From Rhodospirillales bacterium (lineage in GTDB: Bacteria; Pseudomonadota; Alphaproteobacteria; Rhodospirillales; Casp-alpha2): a stretch of DNA of 64,000 nt. Each line of letters opens with the position of its first letter. The stretch's first letter is position 1. Positions 7,194 to 50,407 of the stretch are shown piece by piece. The position numbers and the translations under genes are program-made. The stretch spans positions 3,141-67,140 of the forward strand of contig DASWGT010000086.1 in assembly GCA_036393575.1 (NCBI GenBank), written 5' to 3'. The notes beneath the pieces are model-generated. The model searched no databases. It saw only the letters and a program-made list of their open reading frames with translations, and was not told the DNA's origin.

Positions 7194-7319
7194 CAAGGAA
7201 AGCCCCAGTATCCGGTCGCCAGAGCCGATTCTAATCTGTTTCCGACAATTGCGCCGAAAACTCCCGCGCGACTTTTGCGGGGGGGTCGATTCCAGTCCGG
7301 TCCTAGATCAGAGGAGCCG

Positions 7320-16459: not shown

Positions 16460-16691
16460 CGGCAGCCGGAACGCCTCGACGGCACCGCCGAGAAAGGCCC
16501 GCCAGCGATCGGCGAAGGCCCCGGGGGAAACGGGGGTGGTCGCCGGGGCGGGGGAGGGACGGTCGGTAATGGCGTATCCTTTCGCGCCGGCGGGAATACC
16601 GCCGGAAGCGACATTCTTGTCGAACCGGCGGATAAGCTTTTTAATCCGTCGGCGGCCGTCGCGCCACCCCCGGCGTGGTCTAGGAGACGAT

Positions 16692-18562: not shown

Positions 18563-18573
18563 AGGCTTGGAAA

Positions 18574-20079: not shown

Positions 20080-20194
20080 TCGACGCCTGACGGCACTTTC
20101 CAAAGACCTTAGAAACCGTGTAAGTTTGGGGATCGGCTCAAAACCTAACGATGCGGTCGCAACGATCGGCCGAATTCACCAGGGAGGAAAAACC

Positions 20195-21196
20195 ATGAAA
20201 CTCGTGAAGGCAATCATTGGCCTCATTTTTGGCGCCAGTCTGGCGATGCCGGCATTGACCGCCAATCTACCGGACAAGATGGAGAAGCCCGGGGGCTTCC
20301 CCGAACGGCCGCTGACCATGATCGTGCCTTATGGACCGGGCGGCGGCTCGGGCCAAGTGGCGCGGGCGATGATTCAGGGTATCAAAGATACGGTCGGCTT
20401 CGATCTCACGCCTGACTACAAACCGGGCGGCGGCGGCATGGTTGGGCTGAAGACTTACATGGCGGCGCCCGCCGACGGCTACACCGTGCTCCAGCACATC
20501 GACGACGCCACCAGCGGCTTCGCCGCCGGGCGCACCGACGTGAACCCGGCCAAGGACCTGATCCCGCTGGCGATCGCGCAGATCACGTTTTCGCAGATCT
20601 ACATCCGCGGCAACGAAACCCGGTTCAAGGACTGGAAGTCGTTCGTCGATTTTGCCAAGAAGGCCGGCGGCAAGGCGACCATCGCCAACGTCGCCGGCGA
20701 GGGCTCGATGGAACGGGTGAACATGAACCTGATCGCCGAGCATTTCGGCATCAAGGTGCAGCAGGTCAGCTTCGACAAGCCGGCGCCCCGCTACGCCGCC
20801 CTCAAGGGCGGGCAGGTGGACGCGCTGTTCGAGCAGCCGGGCGACGTGAAAGGCTTCCTCGAAAGTGGCGACTTTAAGCCGATCCTCAGCTTGCTGAAGG
20901 ATCGGCCGAAGGCCTTTGCCGACGTGCCGTCGATGACCGACGTCGGCCTTGCCTTCAACCCGCTGATGCGGTTCCGCGGCTTCTACGTGCACAAGAACAC
21001 GCCGCCGGAGCGCGTCAAGTATCTGCAATGGGCGTTCCAGAAGGGCTACAACTCGGAGAGCTTCCTCAAGTTCAATAAGAGCAAGTTCATGGACCTTATC
21101 CCTAGCTTCCGCGACACCGAAGGCGCCATCAAGCTGATCAACGAGACCATGGCCGTCTACCGGGCGACCTACAAGAAGATGGGGCTGATCAAGTAA
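20195..21196 (+). CDS. tctC: tripartite tricarboxylate transporter (TTT) substrate-binding protein, TctC/Bug family
   Basis: 333 aa from ATG 20195 after GGGAGG, with signal peptide MKLVKAIIGLIFGASLAMPALTA. It has the Bug-family pattern FPERPLTMIVPYGPGGGSGQVAR. Confidence 0.85.
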   Translation: MKLVKAIIGLIFGASLAMPALTANLPDKMEKPGGFPERPLTMIVPYGPGGGSGQVARAMIQGIKDTVGFDLTPDYKPGGGGMVGLKTYMAAPADGYTVLQHIDDATSGFAAGRTDVNPAKDLIPLAIAQITFSQIYIRGNETRFKDWKSFVDFAKKAGGKATIANVAGEGSMERVNMNLIAEHFGIKVQQVSFDKPAPRYAALKGGQVDALFEQPGDVKGFLESGDFKPILSLLKDRPKAFADVPSMTDVGLAFNPLMRFRGFYVHKNTPPERVKYLQWAFQKGYNSESFLKFNKSKFMDLIPSFRDTEGAIKLINETMAVYRATYKKMGLIK

Positions 21197-21274
21197 GCCC
21201 GTCGTTCCTTACGTAAGCCGATGATAGGCTCCGGCGGGAAACCCCGCCGGAGCCGCCACGACAGGGGGTCCGTG

Positions 21275-21817
21275 ATGGGCAAACTGACCGGCGGCCAGTG
21301 GTTCGAGATCGTCTTCTGGACCGGCTTCGCCACCGCCGCCTACGTTCTCAGCTTCCAATTCGACCGCGATGTGCAGATGTACCGCTTCGGCGCGGCCGCG
21401 TGGCCGCGCGCGGTGATCCTCTTGATCCTGGCCGCGGCGGTCGGGCAGTTGGTCGCCGATGTGCGCGCGCGAAAGGCGGCCGCCGCCGCTGGCGCGCTCG
21501 AAGACGGCTACTTCCGCAGGATGGCCGACGAGCACGGCGCCGCCTTCTTCGTGCGCATGGGGATCACGCTGGCGTTGCCGCTCGCCTACGCCGCGCTGCT
21601 TCAGAACACCGGCTATTACTTCACCACACCGTTTTTCCTGGCCGCTTACCTCTATATCACCGGCGAACACCGCATTAAGTGGCTGATCATTGTGCCGCTT
21701 GCCATTTACGTGGTCATCACTTTCATCTTTACCCGCCTTCTCTACGTCGGCCTACCGGTCGGCTACTGGCCCGGGTTTTACGACTTCGGCAACTGGATCG
21801 TCGTGCTGATCCGCTGA
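21275..21817 (+). CDS. tctB: TTT small membrane subunit, TctB family
   Basis: A 180-aa 4-TM protein located between tctC and tctA. Confidence 0.7.
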   Translation: MGKLTGGQWFEIVFWTGFATAAYVLSFQFDRDVQMYRFGAAAWPRAVILLILAAAVGQLVADVRARKAAAAAGALEDGYFRRMADEHGAAFFVRMGITLALPLAYAALLQNTGYYFTTPFFLAAYLYITGEHRIKWLIIVPLAIYVVITFIFTRLLYVGLPVGYWPGFYDFGNWIVVLIR

Positions 21818-21836
21818 CGGGAAAGAAGCGTCTTCC

Positions 21837-23330
21837 ATGGAACAGTTCATCGCCGGTACGCTGACCCTGGTCAGCAGCCCGCTCAGCATTCTGATATTTT
21901 TCAGTGGGTTGTTCGGCGGGCTTTTGTTCGGTGCCATCCCCGGCATCAACATGCTGACGCTGGCGGCCATCTTCCTGCCGTTCTCCGGCCTGCTCAGCGC
22001 CGCCGACGCCATCATGTTCTATGCAGTGCTGTATTGCTCGGGCACTTACGGCGGCGCGGTAACGGCGATCCTATTCAATATCCCGGGCTCGCCCGAAAAC
22101 GCGCCGACCGCCTTCGACGGCTATCCGATGGCGCAACAAGGCTTGGCCGGCAAGGCCATCGGCGCGGCGGTACTGTGTTCGTCGTTCGGCGGCACCTGTT
22201 CGGCGCTGTTGATGATCACGGCGACGCCTCTCATTGCCGACTGGGCGGTCCGCAACTTCGGACCGCCCGAGATCTTCTCCCTCGTCTTCTTCGGCATCGC
22301 GGTGGCGTCCTCGGTCGGCGCCAGGACGTTGTGGAAGGGCTGGCTGTCGGTCGGATTCGGCCTGATGATCGCCACCATCGGCCTCGATCCGGTGGCGGGT
22401 CTGCAGCGCTACGACTTTGGCTATGCCTACCTGCTCGCTGGCATCCACTTCATCCCCACCATCCTCGGTTTCTTCGCCGTTTCCGAAGTTTTCGTGCAGG
22501 CGGAACGGCGGGTACGCGGAAAGTTCGACATGCCCAAGTTCAGTACCCACTTTCCCAGCTTGGCCGAGTTTTGGCAGCTGAAGGTCGCGGTAGCGCGGTC
22601 GGTGTTCGTGGGGTTCTTCGCCGGCATCCTTCCCGGCATCGGCGCGACGCTGGCGGCGTTCATGAGCTACAACGAGGCGGTGCGTTGGTCGAAGACGCCG
22701 GAAAAATTCGGCAAGGGCCAGCTCGAAGGTGTCGTCGCCTCGGAAACCGCCAACAACGCCGCCACTGGCGCAGCCATGATACCGCTCCTGGCCTTGGGCC
22801 TGCCCGGCGGCGCGTTGACGGCGATGATGGTCGGCGTTTTCCAGATGCACGACATGGAGCCAGGGCCGCTAGTGTTCGTCAACTCCAGCGAACTGGTGTG
22901 GGTGGTGTTCGCGGCCATGTTCTTTGCCAACATCTGCATCCTCGGCCTTGGTTACGTAGAGACCAAAACGGTTCTGCACCTACTGCGCATCCCGTTTCAG
23001 TTCCTGGCGCCGGCCATCCTGCTTTTGGCCACCGTCGGTGCCTACGCGGTGCGCAACCTGGCGATGGACGTGGGGGTGATGTTTGTAGCCGGGATCATCG
23101 CCTACCTGATGCGCCGGTCCGGCTATTCGGTGGCCGGCATCGTGCTCGGGCTGATCCTCGGCGAGATCGGCGAGCAGAACTTCGCCCAGGCGATGCAGAT
23201 CGTCGGCTACGACTACGCCGCCTTGGTCACCCGGCCGATCGTCGCCGTCCTGCTGCTCGCCGGCATCGCCACCATCGGCACCAACATCTACCGTGAACTC
23301 CGCGGCGGGCGGAAAGGGGTCGAGGTCTAG
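21837..23330 (+). CDS. tctA: TTT large permease subunit, TctA family
   Basis: A 497-aa polytopic membrane protein. It has TctA motifs GAIPGINMLTLAAIFLP, NIPGSPENAPTAFDGYPMAQQG and ETANNAATGAAMIPLLALGLPG. Confidence 0.9.
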   Translation: MEQFIAGTLTLVSSPLSILIFFSGLFGGLLFGAIPGINMLTLAAIFLPFSGLLSAADAIMFYAVLYCSGTYGGAVTAILFNIPGSPENAPTAFDGYPMAQQGLAGKAIGAAVLCSSFGGTCSALLMITATPLIADWAVRNFGPPEIFSLVFFGIAVASSVGARTLWKGWLSVGFGLMIATIGLDPVAGLQRYDFGYAYLLAGIHFIPTILGFFAVSEVFVQAERRVRGKFDMPKFSTHFPSLAEFWQLKVAVARSVFVGFFAGILPGIGATLAAFMSYNEAVRWSKTPEKFGKGQLEGVVASETANNAATGAAMIPLLALGLPGGALTAMMVGVFQMHDMEPGPLVFVNSSELVWVVFAAMFFANICILGLGYVETKTVLHLLRIPFQFLAPAILLLATVGAYAVRNLAMDVGVMFVAGIIAYLMRRSGYSVAGIVLGLILGEIGEQNFAQAMQIVGYDYAALVTRPIVAVLLLAGIATIGTNIYRELRGGRKGVEV

Positions 23331-24870: not shown

Positions 24871-26009
24871 ACTTCCAGGAACACGCGGCGAAGCCGCTAC
24901 TCGCCGCGGCCGGCATCGCCGTGCCCGCCTCGCAGCCCGCGCGGACGCCCGAGGCAGCCGCCGCCGCGCAAAAGGCTTTGGGGCCGGTGGTGGTCAAGGC
25001 GCAAGTGCCGACCGGCAAGCGCGGCAAGGCCGGCGGCATCAGAAAGGCCGATACGCCGGAACAAACCCGTGCCGCCGCCGAGGCCATCCTCGGCATGACC
25101 ATCGACGGCCACAGGGTCGAGAGCGTGCTGGTCGAGAGCCGCGCCGACATCAAGCGTGAGTTCTACGCCGCCGTCATGAACGACCCGGCATCGAAGGGGC
25201 CGCTGGTGCTGTTCTCGACCCTCGGCGGCATGGACATCGAGGAGGCCGCGGCCAAGGATGCGAGCGCCATCCGCCGCGCCGCGGTCGACATCCGCGACGG
25301 TTTCGACGCCAAGGCAGCGCGAGCGATGCTGAAGGGCCTCGACCTCGGCGGCAAGGACGCCCAAGTCGCCGACGTGCTGGTCAGGCTCTACCAGGTCTAC
25401 CGCGACAACGACACCGAGCTGATCGAGATCAACCCGCTCGCCGTCACCGGCGACGGCCGGATGGTGGCGCTCGACTGCAAGTTCGTCATGGACGATTCGG
25501 CCGTCAAGCGCCATGAGGAGCTGGCCAAGAAGGGAACGCCGGAGAAGGTCACCGGATTGGAAGCGAAAGGCCGCGCGCTGGGCCTGCGCTACATCGAGCT
25601 CGATGGCGACGTGGGTGTACTCGCCAACGGCGCCGGATTGACCATGACCACCATGGACGTTGTCTGCCATCACGGCGGCAAGCCCGCCAACTTCCTTGAG
25701 ATCGGCGGCGAGGCCTATACCCAAGCCAAGCCGGCGCTCGAGCTGGTGCTCGCCAATCCCAACGTCAGGAGCCTAGTCATCAACTTTTGCGGCGCCTTCG
25801 CCCGCACCGACGTGATGACCGAAGGCGTGCTGGCGGCGCTCGACGCCATCAAGCCGAAGCTGCCGATCCACTGGTCGGTGCACGGCACCGGCGACGTCGA
25901 GGCCCGCGCCATGCTGAAAGAGAAACTCGGCGTGATGCCGTTCGCGACCATGGACCAGGCATGTGCCGCCGCCGTCGAATCCGCACGGAAGGCCGGGGGT
26001 CACCGATGA
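24867..26009 (+). CDS. ADP-forming acyl-CoA ligase beta subunit (SucC/MtkA-like, ATP-grasp)
   Basis: 380 aa from ATG 24867 with an ATGA overlap. The N-terminus MNFQEHAAKPLLAAAGIAVP parallels SucC MNLHEYQAK. Other motifs are VVKAQVPTGKRGKAGGI, LIEINPLAV and NGAGLTMTTMD. The 600-aa track ORF is an upstream out-of-gene extension. Confidence 0.85.
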   Translation: MNFQEHAAKPLLAAAGIAVPASQPARTPEAAAAAQKALGPVVVKAQVPTGKRGKAGGIRKADTPEQTRAAAEAILGMTIDGHRVESVLVESRADIKREFYAAVMNDPASKGPLVLFSTLGGMDIEEAAAKDASAIRRAAVDIRDGFDAKAARAMLKGLDLGGKDAQVADVLVRLYQVYRDNDTELIEINPLAVTGDGRMVALDCKFVMDDSAVKRHEELAKKGTPEKVTGLEAKGRALGLRYIELDGDVGVLANGAGLTMTTMDVVCHHGGKPANFLEIGGEAYTQAKPALELVLANPNVRSLVINFCGAFARTDVMTEGVLAALDAIKPKLPIHWSVHGTGDVEARAMLKEKLGVMPFATMDQACAAAVESARKAGGHR

Positions 26010-26902
26010 TCGTCCGCGGCAGCGACCGGGTGCTGATCCAGGGCATCACCGGCAAGCAGGGCACTTTCTGGACCGAACGCATGCAGGAATATGGCACCAA
26101 CGTCGTCGGCGGCGTCAACCCGAACAAGGCTGGCACCGTCCACTGCGCCGTGCCGGTCTACGCCAGCGCCAAGGAAGCTAAGAAAGCCCTGAACGACGAG
26201 GGCGGCTTCGACGTCTCGGTGCTGTTCATCCCACCGCTCGGCGTCAAGGAGGCGGCGCTCGATGCCATCGCGGCCGGCGCCAAGGGGTTGGTGGTGCTGA
26301 CCGAGCACATCCCGGTCCACGACGTCATGTGGTTCCTGGCTGCCGCCCGCGACGCGGGCTGCCGAGTGCTCGGCCCCAACACCGCTGGTTCCGTCACGCC
26401 GGGCGAGTGCTTCTGCGGCTTCATGCCGGCGTTCAACGACAACATCTTCAAGCCCGGCCGCGTCGGCGTCATCTCGCGCTCCGGCAGCCTCGGCACGCTC
26501 ATCTGCCTGAACCTGGCGCAGGCCGGGTTCGGTCAATCGGCGTTCATCGGCATCGGCGGCGACCCGATCATCGGCACCACCACCCGCGACGCGCTGGAGA
26601 CGCTCGATGTCGATTCGCGCACCGACGCCGTCGTCATCGTCGGCGAGATCGGCGGCGCCATGGAGGAGGCGGCGGCCGAATACGCAGGCACCATGAAAAA
26701 GCCGATCGCCGCCTTCATCGCCGGCGGCGCCGCGCCCAAGGGCAAGCGCATGGGCCACGCCGGCGCCATTGTCATGGGCGACAGGGGAACGTATGACTCC
26801 AAGGCGAGGGCGCTGACGGCGGCCGGCGTGACGGTGGTCGCGACGCCGTCCGCCATCGGCACCTGGGCAAGGGAAGCGATTGGGGGCCGGCGCGCGTCAT
26901 GA
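26006..26902 (+). CDS. ADP-forming acyl-CoA ligase alpha subunit (SucD-like, CoA-binding)
   Basis: 298 aa with an ATGA overlap. Motifs are [24 protein letters not shown] and SRSGSLG. The phosphohistidine loop MGHAGAIV is present. Confidence 0.85.
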
Positions 26903-30005: not shown

Positions 30006-31094
30006 TCAGGCCCCGACCTGTTCGGCGGTGAAGCGATGGCTATCGGCGGCGAGCCGGGCGAGCGCGGCGTCGTCGATCAACGCCGGGAGGCCTGCTTTCA
30101 CCACCATCGCGCCCCGCTCGACCCCGATCGGGTTCCTGAATACCCGCGCCTTCGGCTTCAGGAACCCGTTCATCTCGCCCGCGTTATCGATCAGGGTACG
30201 GGCGACACACGCCTCCATCCAGCAGCCGATGTCGCTGGCGACGCCGTTGCCGAGCACCGGCGTCATGCCGCGCTCGCGGATCAGCCGGAGGCCGGCGGCG
30301 AGCGAGTCCAAGCCGCCCGCCTTCATCAGCTTGAGCTTGATGAATTTGGCGCAGCCGAGATCGGCGGCGCGCTTGATGTCGTCGGGACCGAAGATCGATT
30401 CGTCCATCATCATCGGCACCGTCGAAACCTTGGCGACGGCTTCCGCGGCCTTCCAGTCGCCGGCGTCGCACGGCTGCTCGAACAGCTCGATATTGTCGGG
30501 CTTGAGCGCGCCGGCGAAGCGAACGGCGTCGTCCTGCCCGAAGCCCTGGTTGCCGTCGATGCGGATGCGCGCCCGCCCGGCGAGCGCGTCCTGAATGAAG
30601 CGGACACGCCGGGCATCGGCGTTGGCGTCGAAGCCGACCTTGACCTTCAGGGTCCGATAGCCTTCGGCCAGCCGCGCCTCGATCTCGGCGGCGATTTCCT
30701 TCTCCTCGGTCTCGTTGAGGATGGCGAGCAGCGGCACCCGCGCCGGCTCGCGCACTTCCAGGAGCGGGTTGCCCTCCAGCATCTCGGCCGCCGTCATCAG
30801 GGCGGTGGCCATGAATGGCTGGTGGTGCGCGACGAGCCCAATCAGGTCCTTGGCGTCCGGCGTTTCCATTCCCGCTACGCGACGGGCCAATTGAGCGGCG
30901 GCGGGCCAGCTCTCGGCGATGGTTTCCGGCGTGTAGCCGGTGAGGATGGTGGCCTCGCCGAAGCCGCGCCGGCCGTCGCTATCCTCCGCCACCGCCAGGA
31001 TGGTGTCGAACGCCGTCACCTCGCCGAGCGCCAGGTGATAGGGACGATGCAGCGGCAGTTCGAGGCGGTACAGGGTGATGGAGGCAATGCGCAT
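30006..31094 (-). CDS. enolase-superfamily enzyme, mandelate racemase/muconate lactonizing (MLE/dipeptide-epimerase-like) subgroup
   Basis: 362 aa from ATG 31094. It has the KxK motif (LKVKVG), metal ligands in RIDGNQGF, LFEQP and MMDES, and a second catalytic Lys region KLKLMKAGG. Confidence 0.85.
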   Translation of the reverse strand: MRIASITLYRLELPLHRPYHLALGEVTAFDTILAVAEDSDGRRGFGEATILTGYTPETIAESWPAAAQLARRVAGMETPDAKDLIGLVAHHQPFMATALMTAAEMLEGNPLLEVREPARVPLLAILNETEEKEIAAEIEARLAEGYRTLKVKVGFDANADARRVRFIQDALAGRARIRIDGNQGFGQDDAVRFAGALKPDNIELFEQPCDAGDWKAAEAVAKVSTVPMMMDESIFGPDDIKRAADLGCAKFIKLKLMKAGGLDSLAAGLRLIRERGMTPVLGNGVASDIGCWMEACVARTLIDNAGEMNGFLKPKARVFRNPIGVERGAMVVKAGLPALIDDAALARLAADSHRFTAEQVGA

Positions 31095-31240
31095 GGATCG
31101 GACGTGGCTGGGCTCCCCGGGGCTTTGTCCGGGTCGTTGTTTGCCCCGATCATACTCGCCTAGAGCGGCCCCGAACACCGCAAATCCCGGCCCCGCTGCC
31201 CGGCTGGCATCACCACTTAAACCGCTTATACTCGCCAGCC

Positions 31241-31969
31241 ATGGCCGGGACAGCTTCCGAGACCCTTTCCGTTTCGATCTGGCGCGGCGGCGCCGCCGGC
31301 CGGTTCGTCGCCTACCAGGTACCGCGTCGCGAGAGCCAGACCGTCCTCGATGTGGTCACCTTCGTGCAGCGCCGGCTCGATGCGAGCCTTAGTTACCGCT
31401 TCGCCTGCCGGGTCGGCATGTGTGGCAGTTGCGCGATGACGGTCAACGGCAAGCCGCGTTGGACCTGCCGCACCCACGTTTCGAAGGTCGCCAAGGACGG
31501 CCGGCTGGAGATCGCGCCCTTGCGCAACCTGCCGGTGGTCAAGGACCTGTCGGTGGACATGCGGACGTTCTTCGACAAGTGGACGGAAGCCGGCGGCGCG
31601 TTTGCGCCGACGGCGACCCGCGCCGACGGATTTGCCACGATCCCGCCCACCGACGCGAAGCGCCGCAACGCCGACGGCGGCATCGAGTGCATCGGCTGCG
31701 GCGTGTGCTATTCGGCCTGCGACGTGGTGGCGTGGAATCCGAAATACCTCGGGCCGGCCGCCCTCAACCGCGCATGGACGCTGGTCAACGACGCCCGCGA
31801 TGGCGCCGGCGCGGGAAGGCTGCTGAAGGTAGCCGGCGACGCCGGCTGCCACGCTTGCCATTCCCACGAGGCGTGCCGCGAGCATTGCCCGAAGCATCTC
31901 AACCCAACCGCCGCCATCGCCTCCCTCAAACGCGCCGTCGCCGTCGCCGCGCTGAAGGGAAGCCTGTGA
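31241..31969 (+). CDS. succinate dehydrogenase/fumarate reductase iron-sulfur subunit-like protein
   Basis: 242 aa. The cluster motifs are the 2Fe-2S motif CRVGMCGSCAM, the 4Fe-4S motif CIGCGVCYSAC, and the third-cluster motif CHACHSHEACREHCPKHLNP (compare CPKGLNP in SdhB). Confidence 0.85.
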   Translation: MAGTASETLSVSIWRGGAAGRFVAYQVPRRESQTVLDVVTFVQRRLDASLSYRFACRVGMCGSCAMTVNGKPRWTCRTHVSKVAKDGRLEIAPLRNLPVVKDLSVDMRTFFDKWTEAGGAFAPTATRADGFATIPPTDAKRRNADGGIECIGCGVCYSACDVVAWNPKYLGPAALNRAWTLVNDARDGAGAGRLLKVAGDAGCHACHSHEACREHCPKHLNPTAAIASLKRAVAVAALKGSL

Positions 31970-32319
31970 GCGCCGCCCGCGTCGAGACCTGGCTGTGGCT
32001 CGCTCAACGCGGCAGTGCCGCGGTGCTCGCTGTCGCCGTCGCCGTCCACCTCGCCGGCATCATCTTTGCGGTGCAGGGCGGGCTGACGGCTGCCGAGATC
32101 GCCGGTCGCGTCGGCGGCAGCACGGCGTGGGCGGCGTTCTACGGCGTGTTCGTCGTCGCCGCCACCGTGCACGCGCCGATCGGCATCCGCACGGTGCTCT
32201 CGGAAATGACCGCGTTGCCGCCGTTTTCGGTCAATGCCGTCGCGGCGCTGTTCGCGGCGATGCTGCTGGTTTCGGGCTTCATCGCCGTCGCCGCCGTCTA
32301 CCAGCTGGGGGCGGCATGA
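31966..32319 (+). CDS. small membrane anchor subunit (SdhD-like) of the Sdh-like complex
   Basis: 117 aa with a GTG start overlapping the upstream stop (GTGA). It has three hydrophobic helices with His residues (AVHLAGIIF, TVHAPIG). Confidence 0.6.
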   Translation: MSAARVETWLWLAQRGSAAVLAVAVAVHLAGIIFAVQGGLTAAEIAGRVGGSTAWAAFYGVFVVAATVHAPIGIRTVLSEMTALPPFSVNAVAALFAAMLLVSGFIAVAAVYQLGAA

Positions 32320-32660
32320 GGGCGGCGGCGCACCGCAACCACGCGGCGTGGTGGGCGTTCGCGCTGCACCGGCTGTCGGGCGTGCTACTGGCGCTGTTTT
32401 TGCCGGTGCATTTCTACGTGCTGGCGTCCGCCATCGACGGCGCCGCCCGCCTCGACGGCTTTTTGCGCTGGACCGAGCAGCCGCCGGTCAAATTCGCGGA
32501 AGCCGCGCTGATCCTGCTTTTGGCGGCGCACCTGACCGGCGGGCTGCGATTGCTCTTTCTCGAGTTCGTCGGCTGGCGCGACGGCCAGAAGTCCCTGGTC
32601 GCCGTCGCCTCCGGCGTCGCCGTCGCCCTGGCGCTGCTGTTCCTGGTCAATGCCGCCTGA
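32316..32660 (+). CDS. membrane anchor/cytochrome b-like subunit (SdhC-like)
   Basis: 114 aa with an ATGA overlap. It has an SdhC-like HRxSG motif (ALHRLSGVLLALFLPVHF) and three TM helices. Confidence 0.65.
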   Translation: MRAAAHRNHAAWWAFALHRLSGVLLALFLPVHFYVLASAIDGAARLDGFLRWTEQPPVKFAEAALILLLAAHLTGGLRLLFLEFVGWRDGQKSLVAVASGVAVALALLFLVNAA

Positions 32661-33393
32661 GGTTCCCGTAATTCTAGCCGGTGCTTTCGTCGCCGCCTTC
32701 GCCGTCGGCGCCGTCGGCTTCGGCGACGCCCTGATCGTCGCCGCCATCTGGCTGTTCGTGCTGGAGCCGGCTGTCGCCGTGCCGCTGATGGTGATGTGCG
32801 GGGTTTTGCTCTACGCCGTCACCCTGGCGCGGATGCGCCGTCGCCTCGATTTTTCCGCCGTCATGCCCTTCGTGATCGGCGGTGCCCTCGGGGTGCCGGG
32901 CGGCGCCTGGCTGCTGGCGATGGCCGATGCGACGCTGTTCCGCCTCGGCGTCGGCACTTTCCTGGTCGTCTATGCGGGCGTGTTCCTCCTGGTGCGTGCG
33001 ATGCCGCAGGTGACGATGGGCGGGCGGACCGCCGACGGCGCCGTCGGTGTCGTCGGCGGCATACTGGTCGGCCTAGCCGGTTTTGGCGCCGTGGCGCCGG
33101 CGATCTGGAGTGGACTGCGTGGATGGCCCATGGACCGCCAGCGCGGCGCGTTCCAGACCTTCGGGCTTGCCATCGACGTCGTGGCGCTCGCCTGGTTTCT
33201 GGGCAACAGCATGATCGCGCCGGCGGTCGGCGTTTATTTTCTATGGTGCGTTCCGGCGACGCTGATCGGCGCCGGGCTGGGCATATGGTTCTACGGCCGC
33301 CTCGATGAGCGCCTGTTCCGCCGCATGGTGCTCGGGTTTTTGCTGGTGTCGGGGGTGCTGATGCTGATTGAGGTGGGCGGCGGGTTCCGCTGA
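32650..33393 (+). CDS. TauE/SafE (DUF81) family anion permease
   Basis: A 247-aa polytopic membrane protein. Its start overlaps the preceding anchor gene by 11 nt. It is distantly paralogous to 29244-29999. Confidence 0.8.
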   Translation: MPPEVPVILAGAFVAAFAVGAVGFGDALIVAAIWLFVLEPAVAVPLMVMCGVLLYAVTLARMRRRLDFSAVMPFVIGGALGVPGGAWLLAMADATLFRLGVGTFLVVYAGVFLLVRAMPQVTMGGRTADGAVGVVGGILVGLAGFGAVAPAIWSGLRGWPMDRQRGAFQTFGLAIDVVALAWFLGNSMIAPAVGVYFLWCVPATLIGAGLGIWFYGRLDERLFRRMVLGFLLVSGVLMLIEVGGGFR

Positions 33394-33461
33394 CCTGAGG
33401 CCTGGAAGCCGTTGGCATTGGCGACGGCGGTGCTTATCTTGTAGGGACAGGGAAGGATGCC

Positions 33462-34337
33462 ATGAAGATCGACCTCCATGCGATCGAGGAGACCGCGAAG
33501 CTCCTCTACATCCGGGCGCTGAAAATGCTGCCGGACGACATCAAGTCTGGCTTCCGGCGCCTCGACCTGGGCGAGACGGATTTAACCGGCAAGTCCATCC
33601 TCGCCACCATGATCAAGAACATCGAGGTCGCCGAAAAGACCGACAACCTGCTGTGCCAGGACACCGGCATCCCGATCTATAACGTCACCATCGGCCGCGG
33701 CGTCGAGGTCGATGGCGTGGATTTGAAGGAGGCCATCCGCCGTGGCTGCGCGCGCGCCACCCGCGAGCACCCGCTGCGGTCGTCGGTGGTGCACCCGGTG
33801 ACCCGCAAGAACGAGAAGGACAACTGCGGCCGGCGCGTGCCGGTGATCACCGTCGATTTCTCGGAGACGCCCAACGAGCTGGTGATCGAGATGATCCCCA
33901 AGGGGTCGGGCTCCGAGAATGGCTCGTTCCTGAAAATGTGCATCCCCGCCGACGGGGTCGCCGGCATCAAGACCTTCGTCGTCGACAAGGTGATGGAAGC
34001 CGGCGGCAAGGTCTGCCCGCCGACCATCGTCGGCGTCGGCGTCGGCGGCACCTCGGATTTGTGCGCACATCTCGCCAAGATGGCGGCGACGCGGCCGCTC
34101 GGCTCCGCCTGCGACGACCCGGAAGGGGCGAAGCTGGAGAAGGAATTGACCGAGGCGGTCAACAGCCTCGGCATCGGCCCGCAGGGACTCGGCGGCGATT
34201 CGACGGCGTTCGCGGTGCACGTCGAGACGGCGGCGACCCACATCACCATGAACCCGGTCGCCGTCAACATCCAGTGCCACTCCGCCCGTCGCGCGCGGGC
34301 AACCTTCACGCCCAAGGGCGTCGAGCTCGGGTTCTAG
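33462..34337 (+). CDS. Fe-S type hydro-lyase alpha subunit (class I fumarase / tartrate dehydratase / mesaconase family)
   Basis: 291 aa. The family motif is LCQDTGIPIYNV, with the later GVGVGGTSD. It is the two-gene form of the tartrate/fumarate hydro-lyase family. Confidence 0.85.
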   Translation: MKIDLHAIEETAKLLYIRALKMLPDDIKSGFRRLDLGETDLTGKSILATMIKNIEVAEKTDNLLCQDTGIPIYNVTIGRGVEVDGVDLKEAIRRGCARATREHPLRSSVVHPVTRKNEKDNCGRRVPVITVDFSETPNELVIEMIPKGSGSENGSFLKMCIPADGVAGIKTFVVDKVMEAGGKVCPPTIVGVGVGGTSDLCAHLAKMAATRPLGSACDDPEGAKLEKELTEAVNSLGIGPQGLGGDSTAFAVHVETAATHITMNPVAVNIQCHSARRARATFTPKGVELGF

Positions 34338-34341
34338 CGCG

Positions 34342-34953
34342 ATGACGAGCCACGACATCCGGCTTTCGGTCAGCGACGCCGAGGTGCGCAAGCTGCGCGT
34401 TGGCGACCACGTCACCTTGCAGGAAACGTTGTTCGGGCTCCGCGACGCCACGCTCATCCACATGTTCGACAAGGGCCGCAAGACCCGGTTCGACCTCCGC
34501 GGCCACGCCGTCATCCACACCGCCCCGAATGTCAAGAAGGTGCCGGTCTCCAACGAGTGCCCGGCTGGCTACCAGTCCATCTGCATCGGCACCACCACCT
34601 CTGCGCGGATGGAGCGCTTCACCCGACCGCTGATGGCCGAGTACGGCGTCCGCGTCATCATCGGCAAGGGCGGACTGGGGCCCGAGAGCGCGCAGGCGTT
34701 CCAAGATTTCGGCGGCGTTTATCTCGCCATCATTGGCGGCACGGCGGCGCTTGAAACCACCTGGATCGAGCGCATCCTCGACGTCGACATGGACGACCTC
34801 AACCCCGAGAGCCTTTGGCAGTTCCGCGTCAAGGACTTCGGCCCGCTGCTGGTGGCGATGGATTCCCTTGGGCAAAGCCTCTACGACGCCGTCGGTGCCC
34901 GCGCCCGCGACCGCCGCGCCGAGGCGCTCGCCCGCATGGGCGTCGAGAGTTGA
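34342..34953 (+). CDS. Fe-S type hydro-lyase beta subunit (FumA C-terminal domain / TtdB-like)
   Basis: 203 aa, starting 4 nt after the alpha subunit gene. Motifs are GTTTSARME and IIGKGGLG, typical of the beta/C-terminal domain. Confidence 0.85.
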   Translation: MTSHDIRLSVSDAEVRKLRVGDHVTLQETLFGLRDATLIHMFDKGRKTRFDLRGHAVIHTAPNVKKVPVSNECPAGYQSICIGTTTSARMERFTRPLMAEYGVRVIIGKGGLGPESAQAFQDFGGVYLAIIGGTAALETTWIERILDVDMDDLNPESLWQFRVKDFGPLLVAMDSLGQSLYDAVGARARDRRAEALARMGVES

Positions 34954-36680
34954 ACCGTCTCGACACGGACGTCCTGATTTTGGGCTCGGGCGGCGCCGGC
35001 CTGTTCGCGGCGCTGCACGCCAAGGCCGGCGCGCCGGACCTCGACGTCACCGTCGCCGTCAAGGGGCTGCTCGGCAAATGCGGCTGCACCCGCATGGTGC
35101 AGGGCGGCTACAACGTCGCGCTGGCGCCGGGCGATTCCGTCGAACGCCATTTCATGGACACCATCGAGGGCGGCAAGTGGCTGAACGACCAGGAGCTCGC
35201 CTGGATTCTGGTCACCGTCGCCCGGGAGCGCATCCGCGAGCTTGAGAACGAGCTCGGCTGCTTCTTCGACCGCAATCCGGACGGCACCATCCACCAGAAG
35301 GCTTTCGCCGGGCAGACCTTCGACCGCACCGTGCACAAGGGCGACCTCACCGGCATCGAGATCATCAACCGCCTCGCCGAACAGGTGTGGGCGCGCCGCA
35401 TCGGCCGCCTCGAGGACCACCGCGCCGTGGCGCTGATCAAGACCCGCGACGGCGCCGCCGTCGCCGGCGTCGTGATGATCGACATGCGCACCGGCGAGTT
35501 CCTGTTCGTGCGCGCCAAGGCGGTGTTGCTGGCCACCGGCGGCGGGCCGACGATGTACCGCTACCACACGCCCAGCGGCGACAAGTCCTGCGACGGCCTC
35601 GCCATGGCGCTCAGCGCCGGGCTCCGCTTGCGCGACATGGAGATGGTGCAGTTCCACCCGACCGGCCTGCTGGCCGGGCCGGAAACGCGGATGACCGGCA
35701 CCGTCCTCGAGGAGGGGTTGCGCGGCTACGGCGCCTACCTGCTCGACGGCGAAGGCCGGCGCTTCATGACCAAGACGGATAAGCGCGGCGAGCGCGCGAC
35801 CCGCGACATCGTCAGCCGCGCCATGTTCGCCGAGATGCGCAACGCCAACACCGGGCCGATGGGCGGGCTGTTCCTGACCATGGGGCACCTCGACGCGGGC
35901 GAGGTGCGCCGGCAGTTCCCGGGCATGGTCGAGCGCTGCGCCGACTGCGGCTTCGATCTGGTCTCGGGCCGCGTCGAGGTGGTGCCGACGGCTCATTACA
36001 TGATGGGCGGCGTCGAGTTCGCGCCCGACTGTTCGACCGCGCTCGAGGGCCTCTACGCCGCCGGCGAGGACACCGGCGGCGTGCATGGCGCCAACCGGCT
36101 CGGCGGCAACGGCGTCGCCAACTCGACCGTGTTCGGCGGCATCGCCGGCGACACGCTGGCCAAGTGGACGCCGAAGCACGGAAAATTCCGCGACCCCGAC
36201 GAGGCGGCGATCGCGGCCGCGGAAGCCGAGTGCCTGAAGCCGCTCGCCAATCCGCCCGGAGACCTGGAGGAGGTGCGCGAGCGCCTAGCCCAACTGATGT
36301 GGGACGATGCCGGCATCGTCCGCGACCGGGTGTCGCTCGGGCGCACTCTCGATGGCCTCGACAAGCTGGACAAGGTGCTCGCCGGCGTCGGCGTCGGCGT
36401 CGACGGTCGCGACCTCGCCTACAACCTCGCCTGGCACGACTGGCTGAACCTCAAGAACCTGATCCTGGTTTCCAAGGTCATCGCTGCCGCCGCGCTGGCC
36501 CGCGACGATTCCCGCGGCGCTCATTGGCGCGCCGACTTCCCCGCGACCGGCGATCTCGAAACCTCCGCCTTCACCAGCGCCCGGCTCGCCGGCGACAGGA
36601 TCGACGTTTCCATGCGACCGGTCGCTTTCACCCGCGTGCGGCCGGGCGAGACGTTGATCAAAGAGTCCGCGGCGGAGTAG
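34950..36680 (+). CDS. succinate dehydrogenase/fumarate reductase/L-aspartate oxidase-family flavoprotein subunit
   Basis: 576 aa with a TTG start overlapping the upstream stop (TTGA). Motifs are TDVLILGSGGAGLFAAL, RMVQGGYNV, the active-site-type His in HPTGL, AHYMMGG and GANRLGGN. Confidence 0.85.
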   Translation: MNRLDTDVLILGSGGAGLFAALHAKAGAPDLDVTVAVKGLLGKCGCTRMVQGGYNVALAPGDSVERHFMDTIEGGKWLNDQELAWILVTVARERIRELENELGCFFDRNPDGTIHQKAFAGQTFDRTVHKGDLTGIEIINRLAEQVWARRIGRLEDHRAVALIKTRDGAAVAGVVMIDMRTGEFLFVRAKAVLLATGGGPTMYRYHTPSGDKSCDGLAMALSAGLRLRDMEMVQFHPTGLLAGPETRMTGTVLEEGLRGYGAYLLDGEGRRFMTKTDKRGERATRDIVSRAMFAEMRNANTGPMGGLFLTMGHLDAGEVRRQFPGMVERCADCGFDLVSGRVEVVPTAHYMMGGVEFAPDCSTALEGLYAAGEDTGGVHGANRLGGNGVANSTVFGGIAGDTLAKWTPKHGKFRDPDEAAIAAAEAECLKPLANPPGDLEEVRERLAQLMWDDAGIVRDRVSLGRTLDGLDKLDKVLAGVGVGVDGRDLAYNLAWHDWLNLKNLILVSKVIAAAALARDDSRGAHWRADFPATGDLETSAFTSARLAGDRIDVSMRPVAFTRVRPGETLIKESAAE

Positions 36681-38512: not shown

Positions 38513-41500
38513 ATGGTCGGTAGGAAGCGGCACCGCGCGCCAAAAGCGAAAGCCACCGGAACCGCAGGCAACCGGCGAAGCCGGCTGCGGCCTACGATCC
38601 GGCCGTCGAGCGCCGACGCATTGGTCCGCGAACGCCTCTACGACATCCTGGAATCGAGCCCAATCGGTGCCACCATCGTCCGCGACGACGGCTCATTCGA
38701 GTTCGCCAACTCGCGCATGGCCGAGATGCTGGGGCTGACCAAGCAGCAGTTCCTGGCGTCCCGCGCTCGCGATTTCTACGTCGACCCGCAGGAACGGGAC
38801 AGGATCGGCCGCAAGCTCCGCAAGGAAGGCCGGCTTCGCGACGTCCAGGCGTTGATGAAGGCCGCTGATGGCAGGCAATTCTGGATTCTGCTGTCGTTCG
38901 AGAAGACCGACGATGCCGACGGCACCCGCTATTTCGGCTGGGTCTATGACATCGACGAACAGAAGCGGGCGGAACATGAGCTGCGCGCCGCCAGCGACGC
39001 CAACGCGCTGCTCCGGCGGATCGCCGAGGCGGCCAACGAGGCGACGGTCGTCGATGATGCCGTCCAGGCGTGCCTCGACGCCGTTTGCGCCTACACGGGA
39101 TGGCCGGTGGGCCACGCGTTCGCCGTGAATTCGTATGGCGCGCTCGAATCCATCAAGGTCTGGCACCTGGATCGCCCCCGGCGCTACACGGCCTTCCGCC
39201 GGGTCAGCGAAGGCCGCGCGTTCGCCGGGCGGAAAGGCCTATGCGGCCGCGCGCTCGTCACCGGCAAGCCGGCGTGGAGCCGGGACTTCAGCAAGGACAA
39301 GACGTCGGAACGCCCGAAGTTGGCCAAGGACATTGGGGTCAAGGCGGGGTTTGCGTTTCCGGTCCTGATCGGCCGCACCGTGGTGGCGGTCCTCGAGTTC
39401 TTCTCCACCGCCGCCGCCGACCCGGACCGCACGCTGATGGACCTGATGGCACACGCGGGAACCCTGCTCGGCCGGGTCATCGAACGCAAACGCGCCGAAG
39501 CCACGCTCAGCCGTCAAACGGCCATCATCGCGACGACCCTGGAGGCCATGGACCAGGGCATCGTCATGGTCGACAAGTCCATGAAGGTCCTCGCCTCCAA
39601 CGACCGGTTCTTCGACATGTTCGGCTTGCGCCGGGGCAAGTACGGCGCCGGCTCCGACTTTCACGACGTCATCCGCGACTGGTTCAAGAAAACGGACTAC
39701 CCGAAGGGGCTACTCGAAAAAGCGATCGCCAACACGAAACGCCGGAGTTATTTCTCATTCGAGCAGCCGCAGCCCGATGGTCGCATCGTTGAGGCCCGCC
39801 ACAATCCCCTGAAGGGCGGCGGCTTCGTTCGCACCTTCACCGACATCACCGACCGCAAACGTGCGGAGGCCGAGCTGGCGGAGAAGGAGCGCCAGCTTTC
39901 GACCGCGCTGAACAGCATGTCGGACGGCATGTACATGCTGGACAAGGACCTCCGCTACGTCATGTACAACCGCCGAAATTTGGAACTACTGGAAATTCCG
40001 CCGGATATGGTCAGGATCGGCCGGCCGGTAAAGGAAGTCGTCTACGACCTAGCCAAGGCCGGTTTCTACGGCCCCGGCGACCCGAAGGCCCTGACCGAGC
40101 GGCGCATGAAGTGGCTCGCCAGCGAAGACCACACCGAATTGGAGCTCAAGACGCCCACGGGCCGCATCATCCACGTGCGCAAGGCCCCGTTGCGTGACGG
40201 TGGCGCCGTCGTCACGCTGACCGACATCACCCGGCGCAAGCATACCGAGAACGAACTCCGGCGCAGCGAGCGGCGCTACGAGACCATCGCCTCCAACATC
40301 CCCGGCGTCGTCTACCAGCGGGTCCGGCACCGGGACGGCTCATTCTCCTATCCGTACATCAGCCCGGGCGTGCGGGATCTTTACGAGCTCGAGCCACACG
40401 TGGTGATGGCGGATCCCAATATCATGCTGTCGGTGCTGCACCCGGAAGAAAAGGAGCGGTTCCACGCCTCCCTCGATGAATCGGCGAAAAACCTGACGCC
40501 GTGGAACCTTGAATTCCGCATCATCACCGCCACGGGCAAGCACAAGTGGATTCGCGGCTCGTCTCGCGTGCGTCGTGCACAGAACGGCGACATCATCTGG
40601 GTCGGCTTCCTTCTGGACATCACCAAGCGCCGTCATACTGAAATCGAGCTCATGCAAAAGACGGCGATGCTGGAAGCTACCCTCGAGAACATGGGCCAGG
40701 GCATCAGTCTGATCGACCGCGATCTCCGAATCACTGCCTTCAACAAGAAATTCCTCGACGTCCTTAGCTTCCCCGAGAACCTGTTCCGGCCCGGCTTCAC
40801 GCTCGAGAGTGCCTTCCGCTATAACGCTGAGCGCGGCGAATACGGCCCCGGTGACGTCGAGGAGCAGGTCCAACAGCGCCTCGAGTTGGCGCGGCGGTTC
40901 GAGCCCCACGTCTTCGAGCGCGAGCGTCCCGACGGATCGGTGATCGAAGTTCGCGGCAACCCGATGGCCGGCGGTGGGTTCGTCACCACCTACACTGACA
41001 TCACCCGCCGCAAGCAGGCCGAGAAGGAACTGCAGGAAGCGAAGGACGCCGCCGAGAACGCAAACACAGCGAAAAGCATGTTCCTGGCCAACATGAGCCA
41101 CGAACTCAGGACCCCGTTGAACGCCGTCATCGGTTACAGCGAGCTGTTGCTGGAAACGGCCGAGGACGAGGGCTGGGAAGAGGCGATCGCCGACCTGACC
41201 AAGATCCAGACATCCGGCAAGCACCTGTTGGCATTGATCAACAGCGTGTTGGATCTGTCCAAGATCGAGGCCGGCAAGATGGAGGTGTTTCTCGAAACCT
41301 TCGACGTCAAGCGGATGATCAACGAGGTGGCCGGCACCATCCAACCATTGGCCGCCCGCAAGTCGAATGCATTCGAGGTCCGCTGTCCCGACGGCGCCGG
41401 CACCATGCACAGCGACCTGACCAAGGTGCGCCAGAACCTGTTCAACCTTCTCTCCAACGCCTGCAAGTTCACCGACCACGGGAGGATCGTGCTCGACGTG

Positions 41501-48544: not shown

Positions 48545-48553
48545 CGCGCGGCT

Positions 48554-49078
48554 TCAGTTGACGCCGAGCAGCGGTGCCAACAGGCCCGGCTCGAACGGCA
48601 CCTTCAACAGGCCCGAAAATACCAGCGCCACCGCGCCCGGAAACAGCAGCGCGAACGGGATCACCCGCATCGCCCGCCGCTCGCCCCACAGTGCCGGCAA
48701 CAGCAGGCAGGCAAGCACCATCGACGCCAGGGTGCCGACCCAGGCCGTCGACGCCGCCACCGCCACCAGCAGCGCCGCCGTCATCCAGGTCATCGCCGGC
48801 AGCGGCGCCGTTTTCCGTTTCGCACCGCCGTGGCGTTTTAGGATCAACGGCTCAAACGGCAGGACCAGGGCCAGCACGACGATGGTAGCGAGCACCAGCC
48901 GGGGGAAGAACTCAGGCGGAATGTTCTGTGCCAGCAGCGTCGGCACCGATTCGAAGGTAGTGGTCTCCAGCCACAGCGCCAGGGCGACGGCGATGATGAT
49001 CAGCGTCACCCTGATATCCGTTCTCGTCGCGGGCTCGGATTCGCCGTTGCGGCCGCCGTTTCCGGGGATGCTGGTCAT
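48554..49078 (-). CDS. tctB: TTT small membrane subunit, TctB family (second system)
   Basis: A 174-aa 4-TM protein between tctC and tctA. Confidence 0.7.
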   Translation of the reverse strand: MTSIPGNGGRNGESEPATRTDIRVTLIIIAVALALWLETTTFESVPTLLAQNIPPEFFPRLVLATIVVLALVLPFEPLILKRHGGAKRKTAPLPAMTWMTAALLVAVAASTAWVGTLASMVLACLLLPALWGERRAMRVIPFALLFPGAVALVFSGLLKVPFEPGLLAPLLGVN

Positions 49079-49097
49079 GGCGTTGCGGCCGCATCCG

Positions 49098-50078: not shown

Positions 50079-50407
50079 CTGGACCCCTCCCGAAAGGGGC
50101 CGTTCGATCGCCGCCCCTTGGCGAAAAGGTGGGGCCGTCCCGCGTCGGCTGTCAACCGTTAACCCCGGCGCCCTTGTTGCCTGCGAATCCTGCATTTCCG
50201 GGGATTGCGAATCGGCCGCTGCAAAACCGCCGCCAGCGCTCCGCAGAAGCCCAGCGGCGCCTCGGCCATCCAGACAAAATAACTTGTTTTTCAATAGGTT
50301 AGGTTATGTGACCGGCATCACTTCCGGCCGCGTCGGCATCGGGTATTGTCGCCTCCAACATTCGCGGGTTGACTGCCCCGAAGACACACCCAGACGGGCA
50401 GTCCGGT

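Follow-up and report, generated by a model that had tools for sequence, protein, structure and literature searches.

Which reaction is carried out by a complex II-like enzyme whose genes are set on either side of those for a permease and a two-subunit hydro-lyase? We addressed this question for a locus in a 64,000-nt stretch of contig DASWGT010000086.1 from a Rhodospirillales bacterium (hereafter the window), where seven open reading frames (ORFs) on the + strand, at 31241-36680, encode an SdhB/FrdB-like Fe-S subunit, two membrane anchors, a TauE/SafE-family permease, both subunits (alpha, beta) of a class I Fe-S hydro-lyase and, last, an SdhA/FrdA-like flavoprotein (Table 1). The flavoprotein departs from succinate enzymes at residues that are invariant in its family, and in other genomes the module is consistently placed among sulfonate and sulfite genes. 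The operon is probably a sulfonate catabolic module, with 3-sulfopropanoate as its candidate substrate.

The operon and its subunits

All four Sdh/Frd-type components, the TauE permease and the two-subunit hydro-lyase that an earlier sequence-only reading of this DNA had recognised are present, and Pfam backs every domain. The motifs quoted there were found in the translations (CRVGMCGSCAM, CIGCGVCYSAC and CHACHSHEACREHCPKHLNP in the Fe-S subunit, HRLSG in anchor 2, and GSGGAGLFAAL, HPTGL and GANRLGGN in the flavoprotein), and gene callers gave the same seven calls on three independent metagenome contigs. The proposed gene order B-D-C also stood, the best NCBIfam matches being to the SdhD type for anchor 1 and to the SdhC type for anchor 2. 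The junctions read as claimed: a GTGA overlap between the Fe-S and anchor 1 genes (31966-31969), an ATGA overlap between the two anchor genes (32316-32319), an 11-nt overlap of the anchor 2 and TauE genes (32650-32660), a 4-nt gap between the hydro-lyase alpha and beta genes (34338-34341) and a TTGA overlap between the beta and flavoprotein genes (34950-34953). The further claim of one translational unit held for these couplings and failed for a single chain: 68 untranslated nt (33394-33461) split the TauE gene from that for the alpha subunit, so that translational coupling runs within two blocks, B-D-C-TauE and alpha-beta-A, with no single unbroken chain. A weak promoter-like match lies inside this gap (33412-33440), and the one found before the Fe-S gene sits in a 146-nt intergenic region between divergent genes.

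The flavoprotein has the N-terminal GxGxxG of complex II flavoproteins (GSGGAG, residues 12-17) and both of their Pfam domains (PF00890, FAD_binding_2, 255.3 bits; PF02910, Succ_DH_flav_C, 83.8 bits), and reached none of the curated NCBIfam cut-offs. Its best match there was TfrA (489 bits, cut-off 718); the SdhA/FrdA model TIGR01812 gave 411.8 bits (cut-off 567.3) and the NadB model TIGR00551 360.8 bits (cut-off 452.75), and all SdhA/FrdA equivalogs were sub-threshold. We mapped its residues by alignment to Escherichia coli FrdA and assessed invariance over 18 homologues of 73-88% identity. FrdA His44, the site of covalent flavin adenine dinucleotide (FAD), aligns with Cys46 in GKCGCTRMVQGG, a segment without His, and the catalytic Thr244 (T-E-G-x-R motif; Thr254 in SdhA) aligns with Glu254, the local motif being E254-E255-G-L-R258. 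The residues H236, R285, H349 and R383 are invariant and keep the His/Arg tetrad H232, R287, H355 and R390 of FrdA, which we take to bind the dicarboxylate, and the loop after HPTG is longer than in FrdA, with a conserved insertion bearing Thr246 and Arg247. The same signature residues occur in plasmid-borne variants (62-69% identity) and in a haloarchaeal homologue (49% identity). The invariant Cys46 and Glu254, together with scores that are sub-threshold everywhere, bear out the earlier suggestion of a non-canonical complex II-type dehydrogenase; judged by these sequence features, the flavoprotein is no standard succinate, fumarate or aspartate enzyme. A NadB-like cysteate or aspartate oxidase, prompted by the NCBIfam matches and by Glu254, was rejected: NadB is a stand-alone soluble enzyme, whereas Fe-S and anchor genes are clustered with that for the flavoprotein in >50 loci, and these conserved partners and the hydratase would be unexplained. 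As an observation in its own right, the invariant Cys at the covalent-His position, kept in proteobacteria and a haloarchaeon alike, points to a possible S-cysteinyl flavin among these flavoproteins, and another covalent link of this kind through Cys46 could raise the flavin potential.

The Fe-S subunit matched Fer2_3 (94 bits) and Fer4 families (4Fe-4S dicluster) in Pfam and passed the broad subfamily model TIGR00384 (188.5 bits, cut-off 88), missing all equivalog cut-offs. It has the 2Fe-2S domain of SdhB/FrdB and the two Cys motifs for their 4Fe-4S and 3Fe-4S clusters, with all three Cys groups conserved in 40 homologues. The third motif (residues 203-216) reads C-x2-C-x5-C-x3-C-P, with all four Cys kept in the 40 homologues, in contrast to the C-x5-C-x3-C-P that is normal for complex II, and with the extra Cys the cluster type at that site may differ. 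Both anchors matched Sdh_cyt (PF01127, cut-off 25.8; 35.8 bits for anchor 1 and 44.7 bits for anchor 2), anchor 1 falling below the cut-off of TIGR02968 (27.4 bits against 41.8) and anchor 2 narrowly below that of TIGR02970 (50.7 bits against 52.3). Each has three hydrophobic segments in a transmembrane (TM) scan, with a putative heme-ligand His in TM2 (His69 of anchor 1 and His72 of anchor 2), as in type C SdhC/SdhD.

In the hydro-lyase, the alpha subunit matched Fumerase (PF05681, 301.9 bits) and NF004885 (fumarate hydratase, 315.4 bits, above the cut-off of 276), and its CQDTG, CPP and QCHS cluster/catalytic motifs align with those of the Methanocaldococcus jannaschii fumarase 7xky_A. The beta subunit matched Fumerase_C (PF05683, 106.2 bits), retains the TTSARM and GKGG motifs with a 6-residue insertion ahead of the TT motif, and reached no NCBIfam cut-off (bits/cut-off: NF004708, 121.5/269; TtdB NF006082, 137/264; TIGR00723, 142.1/145.15). 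The permease scored 91.6 bits against PF01925 (cut-off 32.6) and would either bring the sulfonate substrate into the cell or export sulfite or a sulfonate; in related loci its slot holds TctC, SsuA-like ABC or sulfatase plus TctC genes instead.

Conservation and genomic neighbourhood

Is this arrangement peculiar to one organism? We scanned one genome per species with family-specific peptide patterns and confirmed the matches by tblastn. At least 600 genome stretches carry the family-specific flavoprotein motifs, all 600 of those listed being confirmed. We retained 80 loci, which span Alpha-, Beta- and Gammaproteobacteria, and used a tblastn matrix to count neighbours in the 40 loci whose 10-kb flanks were complete. 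Genes for the Fe-S subunit and both anchors were present in 38 of these 40 and this type of hydratase in 37, so that the linkage seen in the sequence-only reading is conserved in relatives. Cultured carriers among the retained loci include Paraburkholderia, Caballeronia, Curvibacter, Massilia, Bordetella, Halomonas and Imbroritus; named strains and species with the cluster are Paraburkholderia domus LMG 31832, Caballeronia arvi, Bordetella petrii, Halomonas urumqiensis, Paracoccus versutus, Methylobacterium nodulans ORS 2060 and Sulfitobacter sp. THAF37. The cluster is common in metagenome-assembled genomes (MAGs) from the open ocean, groundwater and soil. In agreement with the earlier reading, no characterised system with such a layout was found in the open literature searched. 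The protein families are known, and the system appears from its sequences to be an undescribed functional variant, widespread in marine, freshwater and soil proteobacteria and reaching haloarchaea.

At least one sulfur hallmark was found in 37 of the 40 full-flank loci. A dehydrogenase of the Ldh_2 family occurred in 31, a SuyB-like large subunit in 22, a TauE-family permease in 20, a D-2-hydroxyacid dehydrogenase (2-Hacid_dh) and an SsuA-like ABC transporter in 12 each, and a cytoplasmic Cys-type sulfatase in eight. The SuyB-like protein comes after a ~96-aa SuyA-like protein, and its close relatives are named '(2R)-sulfolactate sulfo-lyase subunit beta' by the Joint Genome Institute (JGI); for SuyAB itself, NCBIfam offers no model and the PDB nothing but GarD. 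For the Ldh_2 protein the best NCBIfam match was L-sulfolactate dehydrogenase, below cut-off. In marine Rhodospirillaceae loci, a gene for Xsc (925 bits, cut-off 676) and a Pta-like gene lie just downstream. The flanks on Methylobacterium nodulans pMNOD01 hold two sulfite dehydrogenases, a sulfate exporter, TauE and a DctA-like symporter; those in Paracoccus versutus hold Ldh_2, a hydroxyacid dehydrogenase, a tripartite tricarboxylate-type transporter (TTT), TauE and a YeiH-type exporter; and those in Sulfitobacter (pTHAF37_b) an enolase-type gene, TauE and a TTT. In Pseudomonas sp. MPC6 a gene for a coenzyme A (CoA)-acylating (methyl)malonate-semialdehyde dehydrogenase ends the operon and abuts that for hydratase beta, which fits a C3 skeleton, and a sulfate exporter and a sulfite oxidase are also encoded. 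Neither SuyAB nor Xsc was found in the flanks examined of the plasmid variants.

Two candidate neighbours were rejected. The thiamine pyrophosphate enzyme near many clusters is not Xsc (217 bits against 676), its best match being 2-hydroxyacyl-CoA lyase, below cut-off, and the PALP gene near loci L006 and L012 is EutB-like and not CuyA-like. On the Sulfitobacter sp. THAF37 plasmid (L091), a gene annotated as 3-sulfinopropanoyl-CoA desulfinase (24403-25575) lies ~10 kb from the cluster and hints at a 3-sulfinopropionate link. A cytoplasmic Cys-type sulfatase (CSPNR motif, no signal peptide) is encoded between the anchors and the TctC gene in ten Burkholderiales loci, among them L013 (5749-7137), and in L026 and L030 a DUF3604 protein, also found in marine loci, takes the sulfatase slot; these in-operon genes suggest a hydrolytic step on an esterified precursor.

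The hydratase is the component that varies. Plasmid copies have the order B-D-C-A, and the hydratase pair that comes next is a divergent paralogue of ~37% identity with altered motifs. Five loci (L011, L027, L029, L064, L086) are without a class I hydratase, and three of them have instead AcnX (large and small subunits) or an enolase-superfamily gene, which may be a non-homologous replacement of the hydratase. On a plasmid of the haloarchaeon Natribaculum luteum (L094, 4488-11456), the flavoprotein and Fe-S subunit are encoded without membrane anchors, an aspartase/fumarase-superfamily enzyme replaces the class I hydratase, and the neighbours are an argininosuccinate-lyase-like gene, TauE, a SuyAB-like pair and a TAXI-TRAP transporter. 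One flavoprotein homologue (P0073, 573-residue class) is recorded as a fusion with the hydratase beta domain. In Paracoccus pantotrophus DSM 11072 pPAN3 (L095, 8353-13176), only a remnant is left, with a flavoprotein gene shortened to 389 aa and abutted by a 960-aa reverse-strand ORF, and without Fe-S or anchor genes; it provides no evidence for P. pantotrophus DSM 11072.

A candidate 3-sulfopropanoate route and its alternatives

What, then, could be the substrate? Dehydrogenases of the complex II type take two hydrogens from beside a carboxylate, and class I hydro-lyases add water to the enoate so formed. 3-Sulfopropanoate is succinate with one carboxylate swapped for a sulfonate, and we propose it because its dehydrogenation and hydration give 3-sulfolactate, the substrate of the commonest flanking enzymes. 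In this route, for which we infer the substrate, reaction direction, hydration regiochemistry and the role of each permease, 3-sulfopropanoate would be imported, possibly via the in-operon TauE, or made by the SauS-like dehydrogenase and SucCD-like ligase encoded upstream. The membrane complex of flavoprotein, Fe-S subunit and two anchors would oxidise it to 3-sulfoacrylate and pass the electrons to quinone, and the two-subunit hydro-lyase, the proposed sulfoacrylate hydratase, would add water to yield 3-sulfolactate; addition as in L-malate formation would give, by the Cahn-Ingold-Prelog rules, (2R)-3-sulfolactate, the SuyAB substrate. Desulfonation in most other genomes would fall to the adjacent SuyAB-like lyase, aided by ComC/SlcC-like dehydrogenases, and in this organism the divergently encoded enolase-superfamily protein is a candidate for it, with sulfite probably leaving via a TauE permease. 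For the plasmid variant, water added at C3 would yield an alpha-hydroxysulfonate and thence malonate semialdehyde and sulfite, which would explain the presence of sulfite genes without SuyAB or Xsc.

We give this operon route from 3-sulfopropanoate through sulfoacrylate to 3-sulfolactate an even chance of being correct. Somewhat more tentatively, the flavoprotein family may be a previously unrecognised complex II paralogue, a 3-sulfopropanoate:quinone oxidoreductase with 8-alpha-S-cysteinyl or non-covalent FAD that acts with a sulfoacrylate hydratase, and the first genetic handle on aerobic 3-sulfopropanoate mineralisation. The sequence 3-sulfopropionate to sulfoacrylate to sulfolactate is known only through citation of a Konstanz thesis on Roseovarius nubinhibens, grown there on homotaurine; according to a 2024 paper, bacterial degradation of 3-sulfopropionate has not otherwise been reported, and a 2026 review calls its mechanism in Bilophila unclear. 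Sources of 3-sulfopropanoate are homotaurine and, in gut anaerobes, sulfoquinovose-derived dihydroxypropanesulfonate. No enzyme-level description of sulfoacrylate, sulfopropanoate or related CoA esters was found in the open literature searched.

These results reorder the substrates put forward in the sequence-only reading. A sulfonated acid releasing sulfite, offered there as the more speculative option, is now favoured by the sulfur hallmarks, and methylsuccinate, mesaconate, citramalate or tartrates are set aside as main substrates, the conserved neighbours not being those of their pathways. Its scheme of a dehydrogenase with a hydratase for the enoate product and a permease is retained, all being co-encoded and conserved; for the substituted dicarboxylate of that scheme, a sulfonate analogue of succinate is likelier.

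The genes around the operon (Table 1) offer candidates for the supply of substrate and for its further conversion. The enolase-superfamily protein, transcribed divergently from the Fe-S gene, fell below all NCBIfam cut-offs and could be a lyase, racemase or hydratase for a hydroxy-sulfonate. A second TauE permease gene is conserved beside it in related loci, and the two genes are again found together beside the cluster in L010, L012, L023, L064 and on Sulfitobacter pTHAF37_b; L064 shares the MDR, SNF, TauE and enolase-type genes with the window. The SauS-like dehydrogenase may, by analogy with HpfX, act on 3-sulfopropanal, and a 78%-identical homologue stands directly upstream of the cluster in L081, in a SauS/SucCD trio. 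The SucC- and SucD-like subunits of the window scored just under the succinyl-CoA ligase cut-offs (348.7/370 and 322/336 bits).

Table 1. Features of the operon and its surroundings, by position in the window.
Feature	Position	Strand	Evidence
TctC-TctB-TctA tripartite tricarboxylate-type transporter	20126..23330	+	Pfam
SauS equivalog, acylating sulfoacetaldehyde dehydrogenase, 477 aa	23437..24870	+	NF047625 780.6 bits, cut-off 600
SucC-like and SucD-like subunits, ADP-forming acyl-CoA ligase	24867-26009, 26006-26902	+	ATP-grasp_2/Ligase_CoA, CoA_binding
MDR-family (quinone-oxidoreductase-like) dehydrogenase/reductase, 333 aa	26899..27900	+	NF008024 250 bits, cut-off 348 (below)
SNF-family sodium-dependent transporter, 439 aa	27897..29216	-	PF00209; NF037979 125.9 bits, cut-off 50
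Second TauE/SafE permease, 251 aa	29244..29999	-	PF01925 108.4 bits, cut-off 32.6
Enolase-superfamily (MR/MLE) protein, 362 aa by metagenome gene calls	30006..31094	-	PF13378 (MR_MLE_C) 106.8 bits
Sigma-70-like promoter match before Fe-S gene	31204..31232	+	consensus 9/12, weak
SdhB/FrdB-like Fe-S subunit, 242 aa	31241-31969	+	Pfam, NCBIfam
SdhD-like membrane anchor 1, 117 aa, 3 TM	31966-32319	+	PF01127, TM scan
SdhC/cytochrome b556-like membrane anchor 2, 114 aa, 3 TM	32316-32660	+	PF01127, TM scan
TauE/SafE (TSUP) family permease, 247 aa	32650-33393	+	PF01925
Class I Fe-S hydro-lyase alpha subunit, 291 aa	33462-34337	+	PF05681, NF004885
Class I Fe-S hydro-lyase beta subunit, 203 aa	34342-34953	+	PF05683
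SdhA/FrdA-like flavoprotein, 576 aa, TTG start at 34950	34950-36680	+	PF00890 + PF02910

Several points weigh against the 3-sulfopropanoate route. The hydro-lyase has all canonical fumarase motifs and its alpha subunit passes the fumarate hydratase equivalog, so that it could simply be a fumarase. The label 'SuyB-like' comes from automated annotation (the JGI names) and the heteromeric layout, and not from comparison with a characterised sequence. By tblastn, no homologue of the SuyA-like, SuyB-like, Ldh_2 or 2-Hacid_dh proteins was found in the 64-kb window; with no SuyAB or Xsc homologue there, no desulfonating enzyme is assigned in it, and the SauS equivalog points to C2 sulfonates as much as to C3. 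With Glu254 the flavoprotein would have a negative charge in the expected binding site for the distal anionic group of its substrate, which a sulfonate would tolerate only with compensation by Arg247 from the inserted loop. In the Sdh/Frd family, enzymes that have lost the flavinylated His are usually biased towards reduction. The route also leaves unaccounted for the sulfatase, DUF3604, AcnX and Glyoxalase_3 genes that some of the operons contain.

Of the other substrates and directions considered, a sulfo-dicarboxylate is unlikely. Sulfosuccinate, for example, would be converted via sulfofumarate to sulfomalate for SuyAB-like cleavage, or to an unstable alpha-hydroxysulfonate giving oxaloacetate and sulfite, and the flavoprotein could accommodate it, both carboxylate-binding His/Arg pairs being kept and the conserved Arg247 being a possible ligand for a third anionic group. 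Transporters of the TTT ('tricarboxylate') and DctA-like types often lie nearby, and the sulfite and sulfate genes fit equally well. However, sulfosuccinate comes mainly from synthetic surfactants, in contrast to the open-ocean, groundwater and soil MAGs in which the cluster is common; the malonate-semialdehyde-type dehydrogenase of Pseudomonas MPC6 fits a C3 and not a C4 product, and the SauS/SucCD-like genes and the thesis-reported route likewise indicate C3.

Quite unlikely, too, is the reverse reaction, in which a quinol:sulfoacrylate reductase would use sulfoacrylate, formed by dehydration of sulfolactate or deamination of cysteate, as an electron sink, as in fumarate respiration, and 3-sulfopropanoate would leave via TauE. 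The carriers are mostly aerobic proteobacteria, and the usual neighbours (SuyAB-like, Xsc, sulfite dehydrogenases, sulfate exporters) would mineralise a sulfonate rather than excrete it. The absence of the covalent-FAD His fits such a reductase, as in Frd/Sdh enzymes loss of the covalent FAD bond abolishes succinate oxidation and not fumarate reduction, but Cys46 could give an alternative covalent link with a raised flavin potential. In its favour, too, export of 3-sulfopropionate has been proposed for TauE of Enterococcus gilvus.

For a non-sulfonated substituted dicarboxylate, which we judge very unlikely, the window itself holds one attraction, methylaspartate (glutamate) mutase genes at 16398-20079, 11-15 kb upstream of the cluster (subunit S, with a B12-binding domain, NF002612, 192.9/110 bits; subunit E, TIGR01503, 448/390 bits; MutL, 551 bits in Pfam), which could perhaps feed a route through methylsuccinate, mesaconate and citramalate; tartrate-type acids would be the other option. 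MutS/MutE are syntenic in L064, where they precede the MDR-family gene beside the cluster (MutE 77% identity), and class I hydro-lyases include mesaconases and TtdAB. Nevertheless, no methylaspartate ammonia-lyase, citramalate lyase or tartrate gene was found. We rejected the methylaspartate route, as the enolase-type gene matches only MR_MLE_C in Pfam and is no methylaspartase by this measure, and the mutase accompanies the cluster in two of >80 loci, compared to 37 of 40 for sulfonate/sulfite genes.

A second, rearranged succinate dehydrogenase/fumarate reductase with fumarase, acting on succinate, fumarate and malate, would account for the four complex II components, the canonical fumarase motifs and equivalog match of the hydro-lyase and, as a malate dehydrogenase, the Ldh_2 neighbour, but is extremely unlikely and was rejected as a housekeeping enzyme: family-invariant residues stand in place of both the catalytic Thr and the flavinylated His, the flavoprotein, Fe-S subunit, anchors and beta subunit miss all equivalog cut-offs, and the conserved, often plasmid-borne placement among sulfonate/sulfite genes has no rationale in the tricarboxylic acid (TCA) cycle. 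No canonical sdhCDAB was found in the 64-kb window.

Other genes of the window lie outside the cluster. A MmgE/PrpD-family protein, a TcuA tricarballylate dehydrogenase equivalog (2094-3587; 519.9 bits, cut-off 369) and a PrpF-family protein are encoded in a row at 650-4756, in what looks like a set for tricarboxylate or aconitate-type catabolism, and 45669-50294 contains another PrpD-family gene accompanied by a TctABC of its own. The window also encodes two very large sensor proteins with multiple PAS domains, at 7275-13136 and 38513-43756, one a 1953-aa hybrid histidine kinase and the other a protein of 1747 aa with PAS/GAF, HisKA, HATPase_c and further C-terminal domains; the second locus is 1.8 kb downstream of the cluster, a linkage kept only in same-species contigs.

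If the 3-sulfopropanoate route is correct, the cluster fills a gap in the organosulfur cycle, with a respiratory complex II that has come to pass sulfonate-derived electrons to the quinone pool, and the route also bears on the mineralisation of homotaurine and 3-hydroxypropanesulfonate. GCTRMVQGG together with EEGLRG would then be a sharp marker-gene signature for environmental surveys, and the exchange of the flavin-attaching His for Cys would be relevant to the tuning of reaction direction by covalent flavinylation.

Comparison with known systems

The complex resembles E. coli SdhCDAB/FrdABCD (type C; PDB 1nek, 1kf6) in its four subunits, three-cluster Fe-S protein, two 3-TM anchors with a TM2 His, and His/Arg tetrad. 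It differs in the order B-D-C...A with permease and hydratase genes inserted, in Cys46 for His, Glu254 for Thr and the Thr246/Arg247 loop insertion, and in a context of sulfonate catabolism rather than the TCA cycle. The hydro-lyase is akin to M. jannaschii fumarate hydratase (PDB 7xky), TtdAB and mesaconase in having alpha and beta subunits, three cluster Cys, CQDTG, TTSARM and GKGG; in contrast to these, it is translationally coupled to the flavoprotein gene, and some related loci swap it for a divergent paralogue, AcnX, an enolase-type or an aspartase/fumarase-superfamily enzyme. Methanogen TfrA is the best-scoring curated family for the flavoprotein, yet far below cut-off, and TfrB of methanogens is fused, soluble and thiol-linked, whereas membrane anchors are encoded here, which would make quinone the partner, unlike the thiols of TfrAB. 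TcuA/TcuB likewise converts a succinate-like moiety to an enoate, by means of a FAD_binding_2 flavoenzyme and an Fe-S partner in the membrane; its architecture is different, without SdhB or SdhC/D-type subunits, and TcuA is a distant paralogue of the flavoprotein.

SlcC/ComC, SuyAB and TauE form the published set for sulfolactate mineralisation in Chromohalobacter salexigens and Paracoccus, and homologues of it (small and large UxaA-family subunits, Ldh_2, D-2-hydroxyacid dehydrogenase, a transporter, TauE) flank the module in most related loci. Known clusters of this kind have not been described with a complex II-like dehydrogenase or hydratase, and the window is without SuyAB and ComC/SlcC. 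The SauS equivalog and SucCD-like subunits of the window belong to the same families as HpfX/HpfYZ of E. gilvus, which make 3-sulfopropionate with TauE as its proposed transporter, and as SauS/SauCD of Cupriavidus and Bilophila; with the TTT, they also match by family the sulfoacetate locus of Bilophila, where TTT systems import sulfoacetate. HpfX/HpfYZ and SauS/SauCD make or consume sulfoacetate or 3-sulfopropionate, without further degradation of the latter, and by analogy the Sdh-like module would be the missing part downstream of steps of the HpfX/HpfYZ type.

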